From NCBI GenBank assembly GCA_965224085.1, contig CBDCYI010000011.1:672001-736000 (forward strand): a DNA stretch of 64,000 nt. The letters are read 5' to 3'. This document shows, piece after piece, positions 50,884 to 56,735 of the stretch (the first letter of the stretch is position 1; each line of letters begins with the position of its first letter). The notes under the pieces were generated by a model that did no database searches, was not told the DNA's origin, and saw nothing but the letters and a program-made list of their open reading frames with translations. This DNA is from Candidatus Marinacidobacterales bacterium. Lineage in GTDB: Bacteria; Acidobacteriota; Vicinamibacteria; Marinacidobacterales; SMYC01. Made by a program: the position numbers and the translations under genes.

Positions 50884-51303
50884 CTACCAGACAGCTTCGA
50901 TGCCTGCAGCATCGGCAATACTTGGATCTCGGGTCACGAGTGGCAGACCGAAGACAACAGCGGTTGCCGCAATGAGACGATCGCCATGCTCTTCGATAGC
51001 GTATAGCTCTTCCGCTTTGCGCACGACGTCCAAACAGAGATCGAGAGCGATGAAGTACGGTGACGACAGCAGCTTGTCACACCAAGTGGCAAATCCGCCT
51101 CGAAGCTCGATGACGCCACGGCGTGACGCTTCGGCTATCTCGACGAGCGCCATTGTCGGGACGTAGACCGCCCCGCCACCCGCTTCGGCTCTCTCGAAAT
51201 GTTTTTTTGCCTTTTTGCCGAGCTTCCGATGCCGTTTTGTTGCGTACCAGATCAATGCGTGGCTATCCGTGACCACCAACTCGGACGCTGAGCTAGAGCT
51301 CAT
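50884..51303 (-). CDS. vapC: PIN-domain (VapC-like) toxin
   Basis: VTDSHALIW, LVEI and DRLIAATA....PLVTRD. Confidence 0.85.
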   Translation of the reverse strand: MSSSSASELVVTDSHALIWYATKRHRKLGKKAKKHFERAEAGGGAVYVPTMALVEIAEASRRGVIELRGGFATWCDKLLSSPYFIALDLCLDVVRKAEELYAIEEHGDRLIAATAVVFGLPLVTRDPSIADAAGIEAVW

Positions 51304-51604
51304 CGGCCTTGGAGGATGAACGCGTAGCCTGGTCTTGCTTGACGCTGACGAGCGCTTGCTCTAGTTCGTCGTCCGCTAGCGGACTGCTCATGCTGCCCGC
51401 TAGCGTGAACGCGCTATCGGCCCGCTGCTCGGCGGCCGCCACGAGCGCTTCCAGATAACGCAATCGCCCCTCGGTGACGAGAGCTAGCCGCTCCTCCATG
51501 TCTCGGTGCTCGATGAAGACGACTCTCTGTGGCGAGCGGCGCAAATATCTGGCGAGCTCCGGCAACCGGGCTCGCGCTTCGGAGATGCTGATACTACGTG
51601 GCAT
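51293..51604 (-). CDS. Phd/YefM-like antitoxin
   Basis: ISISEARARLPEL N-terminus. Overlaps the toxin gene. Confidence 0.75.
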   Translation of the reverse strand: MPRSISISEARARLPELARYLRRSPQRVVFIEHRDMEERLALVTEGRLRYLEALVAAAEQRADSAFTLAGSMSSPLADDELEQALVSVKQDQATRSSSKADEL

Positions 51605-51693: not shown

Positions 51694-52329
51694 TCAGCGT
51701 GACGGATCCTCTTCAGCCGCACGACCCGTCTCAGCGGCGTTCCAGAGCTTCCTGTACTCGGCCCGAACGCTCTCATCCAGGCGCTCGGCGAGCGAAAGCG
51801 GCAAGCGCAGATGGATAATGAGCTCCTGTACGTCTGCCAAATCTTTGAGTCGGTGGGGAGCGGTAAGTCCAGATGCAAGCTTGAGCTCGATCAACGTCTC
51901 GAGCTCGATGACCCAAAGATTCTCCTTTTTCACACGGGCTTCACCGGGGTCGGGAAAGACAACGGGTTTCCGCTTGCCATCGCCAGGGTAATCGCCGCTC
52001 GTCATGAACTCGACTTTGACCCGAGTACGAGTGTCCCAAAAAGTCTTCTTCGCGCCTTGAAAAGCCTGGAGATAACCCAAGCCAACGATCTTTTCTTGAA
52101 AATGGCGCAGCCCATCGGACGAAAGAAGAATGTCGACGTCTTCGGTGAAGCGGCGATAACCATGTGCAACCAAGGCCATCGCCCCGATCACGGCGTAGTC
52201 GAGTCCCTCGCGCTCGAGACGGGCGACGAGGTTTCGCAGCGTTTCGTAGACGTCTCCTTCTTTCATGAAGAAACGGCTCCCCTCACGATAGTCTTCCCAC
52301 AGGGACGAGCTGGTTGCTTTCATCACCAT
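51694..52329 (-). CDS. Nucleotidyltransferase-fold hypothetical protein
   Basis: YAVIGAMALVAHGYRRFTEDVDILL (G...DxD) and LIELKLASG...RLKDLADV. Start uncertain. Confidence 0.75.
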   Translation of the reverse strand: MVMKATSSSLWEDYREGSRFFMKEGDVYETLRNLVARLEREGLDYAVIGAMALVAHGYRRFTEDVDILLSSDGLRHFQEKIVGLGYLQAFQGAKKTFWDTRTRVKVEFMTSGDYPGDGKRKPVVFPDPGEARVKKENLWVIELETLIELKLASGLTAPHRLKDLADVQELIIHLRLPLSLAERLDESVRAEYRKLWNAAETGRAAEEDPSR

Positions 52330-52510
52330 TATTATAGCGGTTATCAGCCGCATGCCCGTTCAACGGCGACGTCCGGGGCGTCGAAGCCTCACTTGCTGTC
52401 GAGCACTGCCATTAATGATTCTGAGATTGCGGTGTTCCGGATAGCGAGGGCTGGCTCTCTATTGCAAACAGCACCTTGCTTTCGTACATCGGCACTATCG
52501 AGAATCCCTA

Positions 52511-52738
52511 GTGCAGACGTTTCGAGCCATCGTGTTTTCCGTCGTCGTCACGCCATCGGCGACTGCGTGGGCGGACTGCACACCTCTCGCCGGGACAGAG
52601 CATGTCCTCGAGCCGGGTACCGTCGTTTTGCTTGGCGAGATACACGGCACCATCGAGGCACCGGAGGCGGTCTCCCGCCTCGCATATGTCGCTCTCGAGC
52701 AGGGACGCCGCGTGACGATTGGCCTCGACAACAACTAG
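52511..52738 (+). pseudogene. N-terminal remnant of an exported protein (LLGEIHGT motif, erythromycin-esterase-like)
   Basis: Signal peptide, then VVLLGEIHGTIEAP...VTIGL, then an abrupt stop. Confidence 0.5.
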
Positions 52739-52815
52739 TGGCCTTTAAGCGCGCGTTCGTGCGTCGGACCAGTTGCCGTCGGCGCCGCCGCTCGTTAGAA
52801 TTTCTCCTTTTGCGA

Positions 52816-53496
52816 ATGCCGTCGAAATCGAAACTTTGGGCCGTCGCTGCGATGGCAGTGGCGTTGGTCTGCATCTTTGTCGCGATGAAGATCGCCGACT
52901 ATGCCGGCGGGCTCGATCTCGTGAACGCGTGGACGAAGGACGTGGGCGTTTTGGGGATGGTTCTCTTTGCGCTCTTGAGCGGGATGTCGGTCGTCTTCTT
53001 TTTTCCAGGCTCCATCCTCATGACGGCGAGTGGCGCGGCGTTCGGGCTTCGGGACGGCTTCGTCGTGGCGCTCGTTGCGACGAGCGTGGGTGCAGCTCTT
53101 GCATTTCTCGCTTCGCGCTACCTCGCCCGCAAAAGAGTCGAAGAGTGGGTGGCCTCGAAGCCGCGTTTCGCAGCTGTAGACAACGCTATCGGCCACGAGG
53201 GCTGGAAAATCGTTGTCCTCACGCGCTGCTGCCCGCTCTTTCCATATATCTTCCAGAACTACGCCTACGGTCTCACGCGGGTCGGCTTCGGCCATTACGC
53301 TTTGGGCTCGCTGCTCGGGCTCATCCCCTCGACACTCGTCTTCGTTTACATGGGCTCGCTGGGCGCGGAAGCGGCGGTTGGCGCGACGAGTTCGCTCGAG
53401 CTCGGCCTCCGAGTACTTGGCTTTGTCGCGACAGTGGTCGTGAGCATCTACATCACGCGGATCTCGACGCGGGCTCTCGAGCAGGCCGGCCTTTGA
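52816..53496 (+). CDS. TVP38/TMEM64 (DedA/VTT) family membrane protein
   Basis: PGSILM..SGAAFG, GA.LAFL.SRYLAR and LTR..PLFP....NYAYGLT. Confidence 0.9.
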   Translation: MPSKSKLWAVAAMAVALVCIFVAMKIADYAGGLDLVNAWTKDVGVLGMVLFALLSGMSVVFFFPGSILMTASGAAFGLRDGFVVALVATSVGAALAFLASRYLARKRVEEWVASKPRFAAVDNAIGHEGWKIVVLTRCCPLFPYIFQNYAYGLTRVGFGHYALGSLLGLIPSTLVFVYMGSLGAEAAVGATSSLELGLRVLGFVATVVVSIYITRISTRALEQAGL

Positions 53497-53727
53497 GTCA
53501 CGACACCGTCACCCGACTCCTTCTTCACGGCGCCGAGTGCGAGCGGAGCGAGCCCGCCCGAATGGGCCGACGGCGGAAAGCCGAGCGAGGAGCGAGGCGC
53601 CAGGCGCGCGAACGACGAGTGAGCGCGCACTGAGCTGTTCAATGCCCATCGCGCAACTGAGCGCGGTTTGCTATCCTATTTTCAATCAACCCGAACAACC
53701 GAATAATTCCTTACCCGAAAGGCCAGA

Positions 53728-54351
53728 ATGGGCACACCATCTGTCGACCAGCTTCGGCTCTTGTATATCGTCGACCGCTTTACCCATTCAGGGAACAACA
53801 ACAAGCGCCGTTGGTTGAAGGGTTTGCCCCTATCGGTCCTCGTTTATCACGGTATTGCGAGAAAAATTTTCGACGACTACGACTGGGCACCAAGCCTCGT
53901 CGAGTTCCACGGCGTCAAAATGTATGGGAAAGTCAGCCAGGAGGCCCACGCGGATCTGGAAAAACTCCAGCACGCGCAGCTCTTGGAAAAGCTTCATCTC
54001 TCGACCTGCTTGTACGACTCCATCCGGGCCTATCGCACGACGATGGGAGCTGCCGAAGCACTCGAGGCTCTTCCACTAGAGTGCCGAACGGCACTCGATG
54101 CGCTGCTCTCTTGCGGGCATTGCGGGGCGCTCCAGGAGATCCTGGCCTATATCGAGCGAGCGCGCGGTCATTGGAGCGACGTCCGAAACGCCACCGTGAG
54201 CTTCTGCCCTCGATGCTGCACCGTCAAGAAGCGACCGGAAGGTCCGGTCATTTCGTCGCCCAGGGCTAACGGACGCACGACGATCGATTTCTTCGAAATT
54301 GTGGACGTTGTCTATCGCACGAAACCTGCGGACGCGAGAGGATTCACGTGA
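53728..54351 (+). CDS. Hypothetical protein with possible winged-helix N-terminus and Zn-ribbon (CGHC...CPRC)
   Basis: 207-aa ORF with a GTGA overlap into the next gene. Confidence 0.75.
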   Translation: MGTPSVDQLRLLYIVDRFTHSGNNNKRRWLKGLPLSVLVYHGIARKIFDDYDWAPSLVEFHGVKMYGKVSQEAHADLEKLQHAQLLEKLHLSTCLYDSIRAYRTTMGAAEALEALPLECRTALDALLSCGHCGALQEILAYIERARGHWSDVRNATVSFCPRCCTVKKRPEGPVISSPRANGRTTIDFFEIVDVVYRTKPADARGFT

Positions 54352-55742
54352 GTCACGACCACAAGAACCTGCTCTTCGTCGGTCCGAATCCCTTGGTGAC
54401 CTTGGCGGAATGGATCCCGTTCGGAACCAACAATCTCATCCTGCTCGAAGAGAAGCTCGAAGCCCACAACAAGTGGGGCGAGTGCCTGCTCACGGCGATC
54501 ATCGACGAGGATCCAGAAACATCGACCGTGGAACTCGAAGAGCCCGAGACGAAAGTGATGCCGGTCGACGGAAGAGATGGGGAGTGGATCGCGTTTCAGG
54601 CCGAGGTGAACTACAAAGCCACCGGCGGCGAACATCAAGTCGAGCGTTTTACGACCCGCGTCGCAGAGAGCGGCGTCGTGACCTGTGACCTCGAGCTTCT
54701 CGAGACCAACGGCAATGCTGACCAGCACAGCCTCGACGATATCGCTTCTGTTCTAGCGGATCTCGTCGAGGACACGTCGTCGTTGATGAACACGCTCCTC
54801 AATAACTTTCAGCGGCGCTTGCTCGATCTTGTCTATTGCGACCAGGCGAGCCAGCGTGACAAATACGTTCTTATCCTAGCCAATAGTCTCCTCCCGGAAC
54901 GCGATGTCCAAGACTATTTGGACGATCCCGCCTGCGTAGCCGAGCTCCGGCAGATCATCGGCCGTCCGTTCCGGAGCAATGCCTTCACGCTGAAAGATGG
55001 AAGCAAGTTGATTGCCGGCACGAACGGAGCGCTATTCATTTCGAAAGACGCCGAGTCCTACCGACGGGTGCTCGAGCTCTATTGTTTCGCTCGAAGTATC
55101 CAGGCGTTTTTGACGAACACGTTCTCGCGCATGTGGATGACTTGGGATCGCTTGTCCAAGGTGAAAGAGATGATCCGGGATGACGGCATCCGGAAGATCA
55201 TGGAGATCCAGGACATCATCAGCGACTTGACCGGTGACATCTCGATGTTCGACACCATACTTGCTTACGTGAACCGAAGCGCCGCCCAAGGCGACGAGAT
55301 TCTCCCAGCGATTCGAAACGGGGTCATGGCCGAAGAGGATGACGTGTTGAGCGGGCTCCGGCTCAGCGATGAAGTCGCGAAGCTCAAAAACAGGGTCAAC
55401 GACGCGCACTTGATCGTCGAAGGCCTGCAAAAAGAGATCCAGAGCGTGCGTGCGCTGGCCCACACGCTAGGGGAGAAGGAGACCTATCGCATCAGCCAGT
55501 TCATGAACGTGCTAACCATCGTCTCTGTCATCGTTCTGCCTTTGTCGCTCATTACGGGTTTTTATGGAATGAACTTCCAGGCTTACATGCCTTCGGGGGA
55601 GATGGTAAACCCGTACAACATGCCAGAGCTCTACACGCCCCTCGGCTATTTCGGCGCGATTGGTATCATGTCGCTCATCGCGCTCGTACAAGTGCTCTAC
55701 TTCCGACGCCTCGGCTTCCTCGGTCGGGGCAAACGCCGCTAG
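54348..55742 (+). CDS. CorA-family divalent cation transporter-like protein with a long atypical N-terminal domain
   Basis: C-terminal MNVLTIVSVIVLPLSLITGFYGMNF...NMPEL..PLGY plus a second TM helix. Confidence 0.85.
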   Translation: MSHDHKNLLFVGPNPLVTLAEWIPFGTNNLILLEEKLEAHNKWGECLLTAIIDEDPETSTVELEEPETKVMPVDGRDGEWIAFQAEVNYKATGGEHQVERFTTRVAESGVVTCDLELLETNGNADQHSLDDIASVLADLVEDTSSLMNTLLNNFQRRLLDLVYCDQASQRDKYVLILANSLLPERDVQDYLDDPACVAELRQIIGRPFRSNAFTLKDGSKLIAGTNGALFISKDAESYRRVLELYCFARSIQAFLTNTFSRMWMTWDRLSKVKEMIRDDGIRKIMEIQDIISDLTGDISMFDTILAYVNRSAAQGDEILPAIRNGVMAEEDDVLSGLRLSDEVAKLKNRVNDAHLIVEGLQKEIQSVRALAHTLGEKETYRISQFMNVLTIVSVIVLPLSLITGFYGMNFQAYMPSGEMVNPYNMPELYTPLGYFGAIGIMSLIALVQVLYFRRLGFLGRGKRR

Positions 55743-56284
55743 CGCCCGAGCTTTCTAAAAGCCAGTTCAGCAATTGCGGCGTCCTGAGCGCCCACGCCTG
55801 TGAGGTCGCAGACGATGAGCTCGTCCCCCTCGCGACCGGGTTTTTTTCCGGTCACGACATCGCCGAGCTCTGCACTCACGTCGTCCTCGGTCATGAGCTT
55901 CGCCTCCACCGTGTGATGGATCTCCCCGAGGCGCACGCATTGCGAGAAACGATCCGCGATCACTTTGCCGGCCCGCGCCAGGATCTCGGCGTCGATCTCT
56001 CGTTTGTCGGGGCCGTCAGAGCCCACCGCGAGAATCGTCGCGCGCGGCGACACCGCGGCCGCATCGACGATGGGCGTCCGCGCGGTCGTCACCGTCAGCA
56101 CGAGCGAGAACTCCTCAAGAGCGTCTTCGGGGCCGCTCATATCGCGCAAACGGGATCGCGAGCTCGTCTTCCATCTCGCGGCCATAGCGCTCCACGTGGG
56201 CGGGCGTACGGCTCCAAGCGAAGACGTTCGGCCTGCTCTTCTTGGATGAGCTCACGCTGCTCGGACTCGGTGACAGCGCGCACG
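55739..56284 (-). pseudogene. Ornithine cyclodeaminase/mu-crystallin family remnant (internal deletion and frameshift)
   Basis: LAVGSDGPDKRE, ELGDVVTG.KPGR and DLTGVGAQDAAIA. The start MRAVTESEQRELI is joined directly to the mid-protein segment VFAWSRTPAHVERY. Confidence 0.78.
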
Positions 56285-56285
56285 G

Positions 56286-56735
56286 CTAGTCGATCCTCTC
56301 CATGCGAAAGGGTTTCACGCCTTCGATCCGGATCCGGTCGCAAGCTTCCGCGAAGCCGTCGAGGTTGTCTACGATGCGTCCGAAGAGATTCATCGCGACG
56401 GGACCGGTCGGCATACTGGGTCGAGCGCCGCGGCCATAAAACAACGCGATCTCCGAGAAGTCATCGGGCCAGCCGGCGATCCGTCCACCGTCGACGCAGT
56501 AATAGCCGATGTCGCCGATTTGCGATTGCGTCGTCTGGTTTTCCGGAGCGATTCGGATCTGGGGATCGATGGGAAGATAGGTTTCCGGTCCGGACCAAAT
56601 CGCGTGATAGAGCGTGCCGTCGAAGGGCAGGGCTTGCCAAAGCGCCGAACACGTCTCGGGGGCGTCGCGCTCGAGCAGCTCGGCGGAAGCGACGACACTG
56701 TCCTGGGCAAAGGTCAGCCTGGTCCGTTTCAGCAT
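56286..56735 (-). CDS. DUF3830 family (cyclophilin-like) protein
   Basis: AELLERDAPETC.ALW.ALP....HAIWSGPE, ENQT and EIALFYG. Confidence 0.78.
   Translation of the reverse strand: MLKRTRLTFAQDSVVASAELLERDAPETCSALWQALPFDGTLYHAIWSGPETYLPIDPQIRIAPENQTTQSQIGDIGYYCVDGGRIAGWPDDFSEIALFYGRGARPSMPTGPVAMNLFGRIVDNLDGFAEACDRIRIEGVKPFRMERID

Follow-up and report, generated by a model that had tools for sequence, protein, structure and literature searches.

A conserved gene pair of an MJ1567-family protein and a divergent CorA-superfamily membrane protein in a Candidatus Marinacidobacterales genome

The 64,000-nt stretch of DNA analyzed here (the window) originates from a Candidatus Marinacidobacterales bacterium (assembly GCA_965224085.1, contig CBDCYI010000011.1, positions 672,001 to 736,000 of the forward strand) and carries two overlapping genes, one encoding a small soluble protein of the MJ1567 family (gene 1) and the other a membrane protein of the CorA superfamily (gene 2). 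Adjacency in bacteria and archaea, natural fusions and retained translational coupling support the conclusion that the two genes form a conserved, coupled module, and gene 2, judging from homology over its last third, carries a real CorA pore. The reading that we favor, and to which we give an even chance, is that gene 2 forms a pentameric CorA-type divalent-cation channel, to which the gene 1 protein is bound as an obligate accessory subunit with a role in setting or sensing its gating. A first-pass annotation of the window, made from the letters alone, had proposed at this locus a coupled pair consisting of a zinc-ribbon/winged-helix-like protein and a CorA-type channel with a foreign N-terminal domain, possibly acting in signaling or defense. 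Below, we lay out how this proposal fared against comparative, structural and contextual evidence.

Coupling and synteny of the two genes

Gene 1 (53728..54351; like all features of the pair given below, on the forward, +, strand) is present in the list of open reading frames (ORFs) with an ATG start and encodes a protein of 207 amino acids with an isoelectric point (pI) of 8.7; gene 2 (54348..55742) starts with GTG and encodes 464 amino acids (pI 4.8). The start codon of gene 2 and the stop codon of gene 1 meet in a shared GTGA (54348..54351), a 4-base overlap indicative of translational coupling, which the first-pass annotation had read correctly. Both starts are preceded at 5 nt by purine-rich, Shine-Dalgarno-like stretches, AAAGG before the ATG of gene 1 and GAGAGGA before the GTG of gene 2. 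Judging from ORF coordinates, the same 4-base overlap is found in two other acidobacterial genera (loci L010 and L011), and at a Thermococcus locus (L014) the homologues of the two genes directly abut.

A gene 2 homologue lies directly downstream of gene 1, on the same strand, in 11 of the 13 genomes or contigs examined that have a gene 1 homologue, namely G000, G003, G009, G010, G013, G016, contig L020 from a metagenome and the genomes of four archaea of the Thermococcus phylum. The two exceptions are a genome with a mere remnant of gene 1 (residues 1-102, with stop codons; G001) and one in which the pair is located on two contig ends (G004). Among 41 related genomes, the gene 1 profile was detected in 8 and the N-terminal domain of gene 2 in 7, the carriers being the same except for the one with the gene 1 remnant only. 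These counts contradict the possibility, which the first-pass annotation had itself raised, that gene 1 is not syntenic with gene 2 elsewhere; its proposal of a coupled pair is supported by synteny as well as by the fusions described next.

A gene 1 profile search of 1.84 billion proteins (E ≤ 1e-3) returned 280 representative clusters at 50% identity, which puts the size of the MJ1567-type family at no less than 280 such clusters. The best 150 of the 280 include 147 newly listed proteins, 54 of which exceed 300 amino acids. In 36 of these 54 long relatives (among the best 150 of 280), a block of the EWIPFG type is located downstream in the same chain, which identifies them as natural fusions, and in fused relatives the stretch matching the C-terminal motif of gene 1 (IDFFEIVDVVYRTK; 54283..54324, with Y196 nearly invariant family-wide) runs into the EWIPFG block. 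Named examples include a Candidatus Wallbacteria protein and an oomycete protein, the latter being the only named eukaryote seen. The first-pass annotation had pointed to DYDYAP/SQEG and EWIPFG blocks in archaeal and algal, sometimes fused, proteins, and in archaeal and fused proteins such blocks were indeed found: the Thermococcus proteins carry DYDYAP and EWLPFGENN, and the fused protein P0057 carries DYDYAP, SQEG and EWIPFGANQ.

An apparent in-frame fusion of the pair in G013 and G016 (a 680-aa open frame) was rejected, because tblastn placed gene 1 and gene 2 in different frames. A metagenome scan with a pore-helix pattern returned mostly ordinary CorAs, with a single true relative (L020) among the 80 loci kept, and a further word-index protein search with the gene 2 alignment added only the Thermococcus protein P0249.

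Some of the long relatives carry additional domains. The N-terminal 770 residues of P0217 (Globisporangium splendens KAF1331198.1, 1507 aa) correspond to WDR35/IFT121, with beta-propellers and tetratricopeptide repeats (E 1e-101), and are followed by an MJ1567-like domain (836-958) and an EWIPFG block at position 1052. Here, either gene models may have been merged or the family domains may be genuinely fused to an intraflagellar-transport protein; P0217 probably explains the label 'WD repeat-containing protein 35' given by JGI to bacterial homologues. The long fused relative P0210 (1299 aa) contains a SprT-like metalloprotease domain N-terminal of the MJ1567-like domain (E 6.3e-6, 26.4 bits, cut-off 25.6); the SprT-like match in P0195 (1041 aa) is weak and, at 21.2 bits, falls below the same cut-off of 25.6.

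The CorA-type pore and its partner protein

The Pfam CorA profile (PF01544) matches gene 2 residues 288-454 at 72.1 bits (cut-off 27), covering profile positions 143-292 of 292. Residues 365-458 match T. maritima CorA in a profile hidden Markov model search of PDB sequences (E 3e-14), and hhalign against 20 ordinary CorAs aligned residues 309-464 only, with a probability of 99.8% and an E-value of 2.7e-28. In the alignment to T. maritima CorA, the first transmembrane helix (TM1, residues 385-406) ends in GMN (407-409; 55566-55574), the two together spanning 55500..55574. They are followed by an outer loop (55575..55643) containing MPEL (425-428; 55620-55631), in which E427 is invariant, and then by the second helix (TM2, residues 433-454), a basic C-terminal tail (RRLGFLGRGKRR) and the stop codon (55644..55742). 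Kept between the two proteins are MxVLTI, PL, GxYGMNF, MPEL and the basic tail. Gene 2 thus displays the features that define the CorA superfamily, namely two C-terminal TM helices, a GMN ending TM1 and an MPEL-type loop, which the first-pass annotation had recognized, together with the unusual length of the protein (464 aa, compared with 322-410 aa for the ordinary CorAs returned by protein searches).

Canonical CorA (PF01544; T. maritima, M. jannaschii; also ZntB, CmaX and Mrs2) shares with gene 2 the two C-terminal TM helices, the GMN, the MPEL loop, the basic tail, a long stalk helix continuing into TM1 and an acidic cytoplasmic domain, and provides its best structural matches. However, gene 2 is ~100 residues longer, has extra beta-strands at 61-120 and an outer loop extended by 12 residues relative to T. 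maritima CorA, lacks sequence similarity over residues 1-308, falls short of the cut-off of the corA equivalog model TIGR00383, and is accompanied by an obligate-looking soluble partner gene, which, to our knowledge, is not a feature of ordinary CorA.

Upstream of the pore, gene 2 consists of an acidic (pI 4.4) alpha/beta cytoplasmic domain (residues 1-234; 54348..55049), devoid of sequence similarity to ordinary CorA and including the EWIPFGTNN block (residues 21-29; 54408-54434), and of a stalk of long helices (residues 235-384; 55050..55499). BLASTP with residues 1-364 retrieved family members only, no ordinary CorA scoring below E 0.8, and an Atlas look-up with residues 1-285 yielded a best score of 0.81, within the chance range. 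Homologues of gene 2 down to 30% identity carry the precomputed tag PF27230.1, a family which we take to go by the name MJ1566_N. The AlphaFold model (predicted local distance difference test score, pLDDT, 74.5, with weak stretches at 1-4, 35-53, 409-419 and 458-464) shows an alpha/beta N-terminal region leading into three long helices, the last of which continues into TM1, followed by TM2. The best structural matches of the full-length model are all of the CorA family, and some alignments extend into the N-terminal alpha/beta region. Going by the model, the N-terminal part seems more aptly regarded as a CorA-type cytoplasmic domain (PF27230) that is enlarged and highly divergent. The 'foreign' domain of the first-pass annotation stands in so far as ~300 residues lack sequence similarity to CorA, the match to ordinary CorA starting only at about residue 290-310 instead of running over the full length, but probably not in terms of shape, the full-length model being CorA-like.

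Within the stalk, R349 and D352 (55392-55403) are invariant in all 17 aligned gene 2 relatives. In hhalign, D352 aligns with the aspartate of the 'RD..DH' motif of ordinary CorA, and titles of PDB entries among the structural matches name D89/D253 mutants. We presume, as a lead only, that the residue aligned with D352 is D253 of the regulatory Mg2+ site of T. maritima CorA, and D352 is a possible retained regulatory site.

Gene 1 has 34 homologues by word-index search, of which 32 (one of them 89% identical) bear the precomputed tag PF27231.1, and the nearest Atlas cluster (score 0.96) is 97% PF27231 MJ1567 (Pfam 38.1); the memberships in PF27231 and PF27230 are thus assigned indirectly, via the tags of homologues. 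Searches of the local Pfam, NCBIfam, PADLOC and PHROGs libraries with gene 1 returned nothing meaningful (best PHROGs match, E 0.25). The structural model, built from an alignment of 61 sequences, is of high quality (pLDDT 92.2, predicted template modeling score 0.87). Residues 1-127 (53728..54108) display the three-helix core and beta-hairpin wing of a winged helix, and residues 129-163 (54112..54216) form a zinc-ribbon-like unit, in which the two CxxC knuckles, CGHC (129-132) and CPRC (160-163), flank a beta-hairpin with strands 137-144 and 152-159, as judged from the sequence and the secondary structure of the model. At the fold level, the modeled gene 1 protein is a winged helix plus a zinc ribbon, in line with the first-pass assignment.

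The two CxxC motifs and the DYDWAP (50-55) and VSQEAHADL (69-77) blocks pointed out in that annotation are conserved in homologues: all four cysteines, Y51-P55 and V69-A73 are invariant in 20 acidobacterial homologues. The winged-helix domain contains the family-wide motifs Y51-D52-x-x-P55 and S70-x-E72...D76, and in the 61-sequence alignment the residues conserved throughout the family are Y51, D52, P55, S70, E72, D76, C129, C160 and Y196, with C129 and C160 the only cysteines reaching 90%. Among 79 short representatives of the family, at least two CxxC motifs are present in 22, one in 20 and none in 37. With gene 1 as the query, Foldseek found nothing in the PDB at E ≤ 1e-3, and the top-ranking chain, from a DarTG complex (2e-3, TM-score 0.43-0.47), is a weak lead. 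The appearance of MukE among the structural matches of gene 1 and of MukF among those of gene 2 was judged to reflect generic winged-helix and helical-bundle resemblance, respectively.

Both halves of the module are already catalogued in Pfam 38.1 as families of unknown function, named after adjacent Methanocaldococcus genes. A full-text literature search, with supplementary files outside its scope, found no publications on PF27230/PF27231 or on the MJ1566, MJ1567 family. Thus, the module is 'undescribed', as the first-pass annotation had put it, in the sense that no published study was found, but not in the sense that its components were unrecorded. What is new here is the GMN-bearing form that ties the family to CorA, its vertical retention at one chromosomal slot accompanied by decay, and a system amenable to assay.

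A two-subunit channel and competing readings

In the reading that we favor, the pair would constitute a bicistronic operon that is complete in itself and encodes both subunits of a CorA-superfamily channel. Gene 2 would assemble as a CorA-like pentamer, the two C-terminal helices of which would form the GMN/MPEL pore for divalent cations (Mg2+, possibly Co2+ or Ni2+). The soluble gene 1 protein, an obligate accessory subunit in this scheme, would bind to the cytoplasmic domain that is specific to the gene 2 family and would set or sense whether the channel is open or closed, a control that would supplement or supplant the cytoplasmic Mg2+ sensing built into ordinary CorA. Under this reading, we infer that the two proteins bind each other, that gene 2 is pentameric, that the channel conducts ions and which ion it conducts, and that the partner regulates gating, the last of which the first-pass annotation had proposed as well. 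The genome encodes one full-length ordinary CorA elsewhere (226.8 bits, profile positions 2-292); thus, the pair is an accessory addition to it, and gene 2 with its partner is an extra, specialized copy.

To assess the binding step, we considered a predicted complex of gene 1 with gene 2 residues 1-380, which scored 0.55 (runs 0.55, 0.62 and 0.42) versus 0.00 for the best control. The mark applied to this score is reached by 58 of 80 solved complexes and by 2 of 110 mismatched pairs, and among those passing it, scores of 0.60 or below were obtained for 7 of the 80 solved complexes and for both passing mismatches. Contact agreement between the runs is at least 0%, with a partner pLDDT of 78 or more. 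The prediction lends weak support to binding between the two proteins, the prior for which is already high because fusions exist.

Several observations weigh against the two-subunit channel. The complex prediction is a weak pass that returned no interface. Gene 2 residues 1-308 show no relation to CorA that is detectable by hhalign against the 20 ordinary CorAs or by BLASTP, and the corA equivalog model TIGR00383 (NCBIfam) scores 79.7 bits, against a cut-off of 200.75, over profile positions 143-320. The model of gene 2 is of moderate confidence at the N-terminus (pLDDT 38-69 over residues 31-110), and most structural alignments to CorA begin near residue 145-158; because of both, the first ~140 residues may adopt a different fold. 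An Rfam search (E ≤ 1) of 52500-56500 found no Mg2+ riboswitch or other Rfam element upstream of the pair. Among the relatives, three of the eight carriers have lesions in the pair (an insertion sequence with a frameshift, a nonsense codon and a remnant); its function is dispensable. Finally, YGMNF-type and MPEL-type motifs are absent from all 54 long relatives (above 300 aa, from the best 150 of 280), and GMN is missing from all 35 representatives longer than 600 aa (again from the best 150 of 280) as well as from all four archaeal partners. Because the archaeal and long relatives lack GMN, the common function of the family need not be Mg2+ transport, and the GMN pore of gene 2 could be a secondary graft onto the family scaffold.

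The last point calls for a closer comparison of the GMN-bearing and other members. The four archaeal partners read GVYA[IV]E where gene 2 reads GFYGMN and retain two C-terminal hydrophobic helices (these partners are located at L014, 6547-7977, and at L016-L019, in Thermococcus-phylum genomes). At the aligned GMN position, the archaeal partners have AIE, AVE or MVE and the fused forms AFD; the asparagine of GMN is replaced by glutamate in the archaeal and P0054 proteins and by aspartate in the fused consensus, with G404 and Y406 kept. Compared with gene 2, the archaeal PF27231/PF27230 pairs comprise the same two families, in the same gene order, with the same coupling and with a winged-helix-plus-ribbon partner, whereas the acidobacterial clade keeps a canonical GMN/MPEL pore; furthermore, gene 1 of the window is mildly basic and has all four zinc-ribbon cysteines, in contrast to two only in the Thermococcus protein. 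GMN is also present in the divergent members P0053 (39% identity) and P0055 (30%). Gene 2 aligns with the archaeal/fused non-GMN family over residues 9-412 (hhalign E 4e-76) and with CorA over residues 309-464, so that, as far as homology goes, the acidobacterial protein bridges the MJ1566_N family and true CorA channels. It joins the two in sequence terms, whereas the non-GMN members alone do not: their match to ordinary CorA, although colinear through TM1 and TM2, has an hhalign E-value of 1.2e-3 and a probability of 19%.

In most prokaryotes, Mg2+ enters the cell chiefly through CorA, the gating of which is regarded as intrinsic to the channel. If borne out, a CorA-type pore consistently accompanied by a soluble partner of its own would represent a second way of regulating CorA channels. 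Because gene 2 keeps the canonical GMN/MPEL pore, standard Mg2+/Co2+ transport assays apply to it directly, and the pair in the window is therefore a practical entry point to the family, through the existing Mg2+-auxotroph complementation, Co2+-sensitivity and liposome-flux assays. A further-reaching reading, which we regard as possible but on balance doubtful, is that the acidobacterial pair is a living link, the whole MJ1566/MJ1567 family, with its split pairs in archaea and its one-chain fusions in some bacteria and protists, being descended from CorA Mg2+ channels. The partner would then be a detachable cytoplasmic sensor, a new class of subunit that took over gating from the built-in Mg2+ sensor of CorA, and the asparagine of the filter would later have been replaced by glutamate or aspartate in most lineages, a change that may have altered ion selectivity. 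If so, the bacterial version would be the one member of the family with a function readable by standard Mg2+/Co2+ assays.

The opposite history, which we consider unlikely, is that gene 2 is a chimera, in which recombination added the last ~100 residues of a bacterial CorA to an MJ1566-type scaffold whose native membrane part is not an Mg2+ pore; the GMN pore would then be a graft confined to this lineage and would reveal little about the role of the family. The different extents of homology, over 9-412 with the non-GMN family and over 309-464 with CorA, would fit such an event, as would the absence of GMN from the longest representatives and archaeal partners noted above and the start of the strong CorA signal (HMMER) only at about residue 365. 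The C-terminal module is, moreover, as similar to ordinary Sphingobacteriaceae CorA (50% identity over 80 aa) as to the GMN-bearing P0055 (48.5% over 101 aa) and P0053 (44% over 90 aa); these values are about equal and hence do not discriminate between an ancestral and a grafted GMN. However, the non-GMN family itself aligns, weakly but colinearly, with ordinary CorA to TM1 and TM2 and retains G404 and Y406, with an acidic residue (E or D) in place of the N of GMN, and the model of the whole of gene 2 is CorA-shaped. Furthermore, GMN occurs in three divergent lineages (the acidobacterial clade, P0053 and P0055), and gene 2 and P0055 share the loop start FQAY.PS, which is why one old origin fits. 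A recombination event would in any case concern the history of the protein more than its present mechanism.

Also improbable, in our estimate, is a signal relay, in which gene 1 would be a DNA- or RNA-binding regulator sequestered at the membrane by the CorA-like protein and released or altered upon cation sensing, so that the pair would serve membrane-to-genome signaling and not primarily transport. The winged helix and zinc ribbon suggest such a role at first sight. However, the helix in the 'recognition' position (residues 71-82, QEAHADLEKLQH) is acidic, and the residues conserved in that region are S70, Q71, E72 and D76. Given this acidity and the family-wide conserved residues, the winged-helix domain seems more suited to binding a protein or ligand than to reading DNA. 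Many members have a degenerate zinc ribbon, and in the examined neighborhoods no conserved target gene adjoins the pair. Release from the membrane cannot be the general mechanism, because in 36 of the 54 long relatives described above this domain and the membrane protein are parts of a single chain.

Chromosomal setting, distribution and decay

In three genera, the pair occupies the same chromosomal slot, followed by genes for an ornithine cyclodeaminase (OCD), a DUF3830 protein and a PQQ-type propeller; an FMN_dh gene lies upstream of the slot in the window and in L010. In the window, ~2.9 kb of extra genes separate FMN_dh from gene 1. These include a PIN-domain toxin gene (50884-51303, - strand), a small ORF that overlaps and lies upstream of it (51293-51604; no Pfam match, possible antitoxin), an AbiEii-like nucleotidyltransferase gene (51694-52353, - strand) and a VTT/DedA-type membrane protein gene (about 52828-53496, + strand). 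The corresponding slot in L010 lacks the PIN, AbiEii and VTT genes, which therefore represent a local insertion rather than partners of the pair.

The distribution of the pair is very patchy: it is present in 7 of 18 genomes of the same family and in 4 of 133 Thermococcus-phylum genomes, and was found neither in 22 genomes from the order's two other families nor in 400 further genomes of the phylum. Neither protein had a tblastn match among 72,556 plasmid records or 50,697 phage records.

This patchiness, the frequent inactivation of the pair and the PIN and AbiEii genes just upstream would be compatible with an anti-phage or abortive-infection effector, that is, a CorA-like permeabilizer of the membrane shut or triggered by the small protein, akin to the CorA associated with type III CRISPR. 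In the published account, a divergent CorA with a unique N-terminal domain is an immune effector: the B. fragilis protein binds SAM-AMP, and only its C-terminal 172 aa resemble CorA (PMC10600005). Gene 2 resembles this effector in that CorA likeness is restricted to the C-terminal part, in its large and distinctive N-terminal cytoplasmic domain, which presumably gates the pore, and in its genetic tie to a second protein. Nevertheless, we consider a defense role, which the first-pass annotation had put forward, quite unlikely. The L010 slot consists of FMN_dh, the pair and OCD/DUF3830, and the neighbors in Thermococcus, judged by eye from translations, are housekeeping-like. No sensor enzyme (cyclase, Cas10 or nuclease) is adjacent, the neighbors within ~4 kb being PIN, AbiEii, VTT, OCD and DUF3830, and among the scanned neighbors there is no cas10 or other CRISPR, NrN or SAM-AMP lyase gene. 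The CorA-like models of PADLOC-DB 2.0 match only the pore helices of gene 2 (residues 357-414 and 358-452; 25.5 and 21.7 bits), and gene 1 has no match there; PHROGs likewise gave nothing meaningful. In contrast to the nuclease or lyase partner of the CRISPR-associated CorA, the partner here is a winged-helix/zinc-ribbon protein, the pair is also found fused in an oomycete, and the pore keeps the full selective GMN/MPEL signature. With no match to defense families beyond the pore, toxin-antitoxin neighbors that are a local insertion and no copies on plasmids or phages, the suggestion of abortive infection is not upheld. That gene 2 is an ordinary housekeeping CorA placed by chance after an unrelated small gene is hardly credible: the pore motifs are canonical and JGI labels some homologues 'Mg2+ and Co2+ transporter CorA', but the adjacency at 11 of 13 loci across two domains, the fusions, the 300 N-terminal residues unlike CorA in sequence, the failed corA equivalog model and the separate full-length CorA in the genome all speak against it.

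Within one acidobacterial family, the evidence points to vertical inheritance of the pair at a single slot, with decay in some members. In G003, which belongs to the same genus (L101, G003:C1, 5784-9600), a 3.8-kb insertion interrupts gene 1 after about residue 31; it encodes a DDE_Tnp_1 transposase of 711 aa, and 16-nt inverted repeats with 94% complementarity mark its ends. Gene 2 of this genome is frameshifted near residue 56-69 and lost after residue 321. In G013 (L005, G013:C2), gene 2 is interrupted by a single in-frame TGA at codon 80 (W80) and is otherwise full-length and 72% identical; in the sister genome G016, gene 2 is intact. Next to the pair in the window, the ornithine cyclodeaminase/mu-crystallin gene (55739-56185, - strand), the end of which overlaps the gene 2 stop by 4 bases, encodes 148 aa that match profile positions 183-305 of 314, compared with 343 aa in L010 and 316 aa in L011 at the same slot, and is probably a 5'-truncated remnant.

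A promoter-like site (TTTTCA, 17-nt spacer, AATAAT; 53679..53707, + strand) is located 20 nt 5' of gene 1, in the 231-nt gap between the VTT-domain gene and gene 1; this is a pattern match only, the consensus scan giving 2 sites versus 0.7 expected from shuffles. Two sub-threshold Rfam matches on the opposite strand within 52500-56500 (a snoRNA and the SorX sRNA) were judged to be due to chance. Nine public runs from three studies contain at least half of the words sampled from 53650-55800; they carry coded organism labels other than 'metagenome', and none is recorded as RNA. No RNA run is listed among the 22 runs overall. The GC content of the two genes, 0.57 and 0.56, is slightly lower than the window mean of 0.605.

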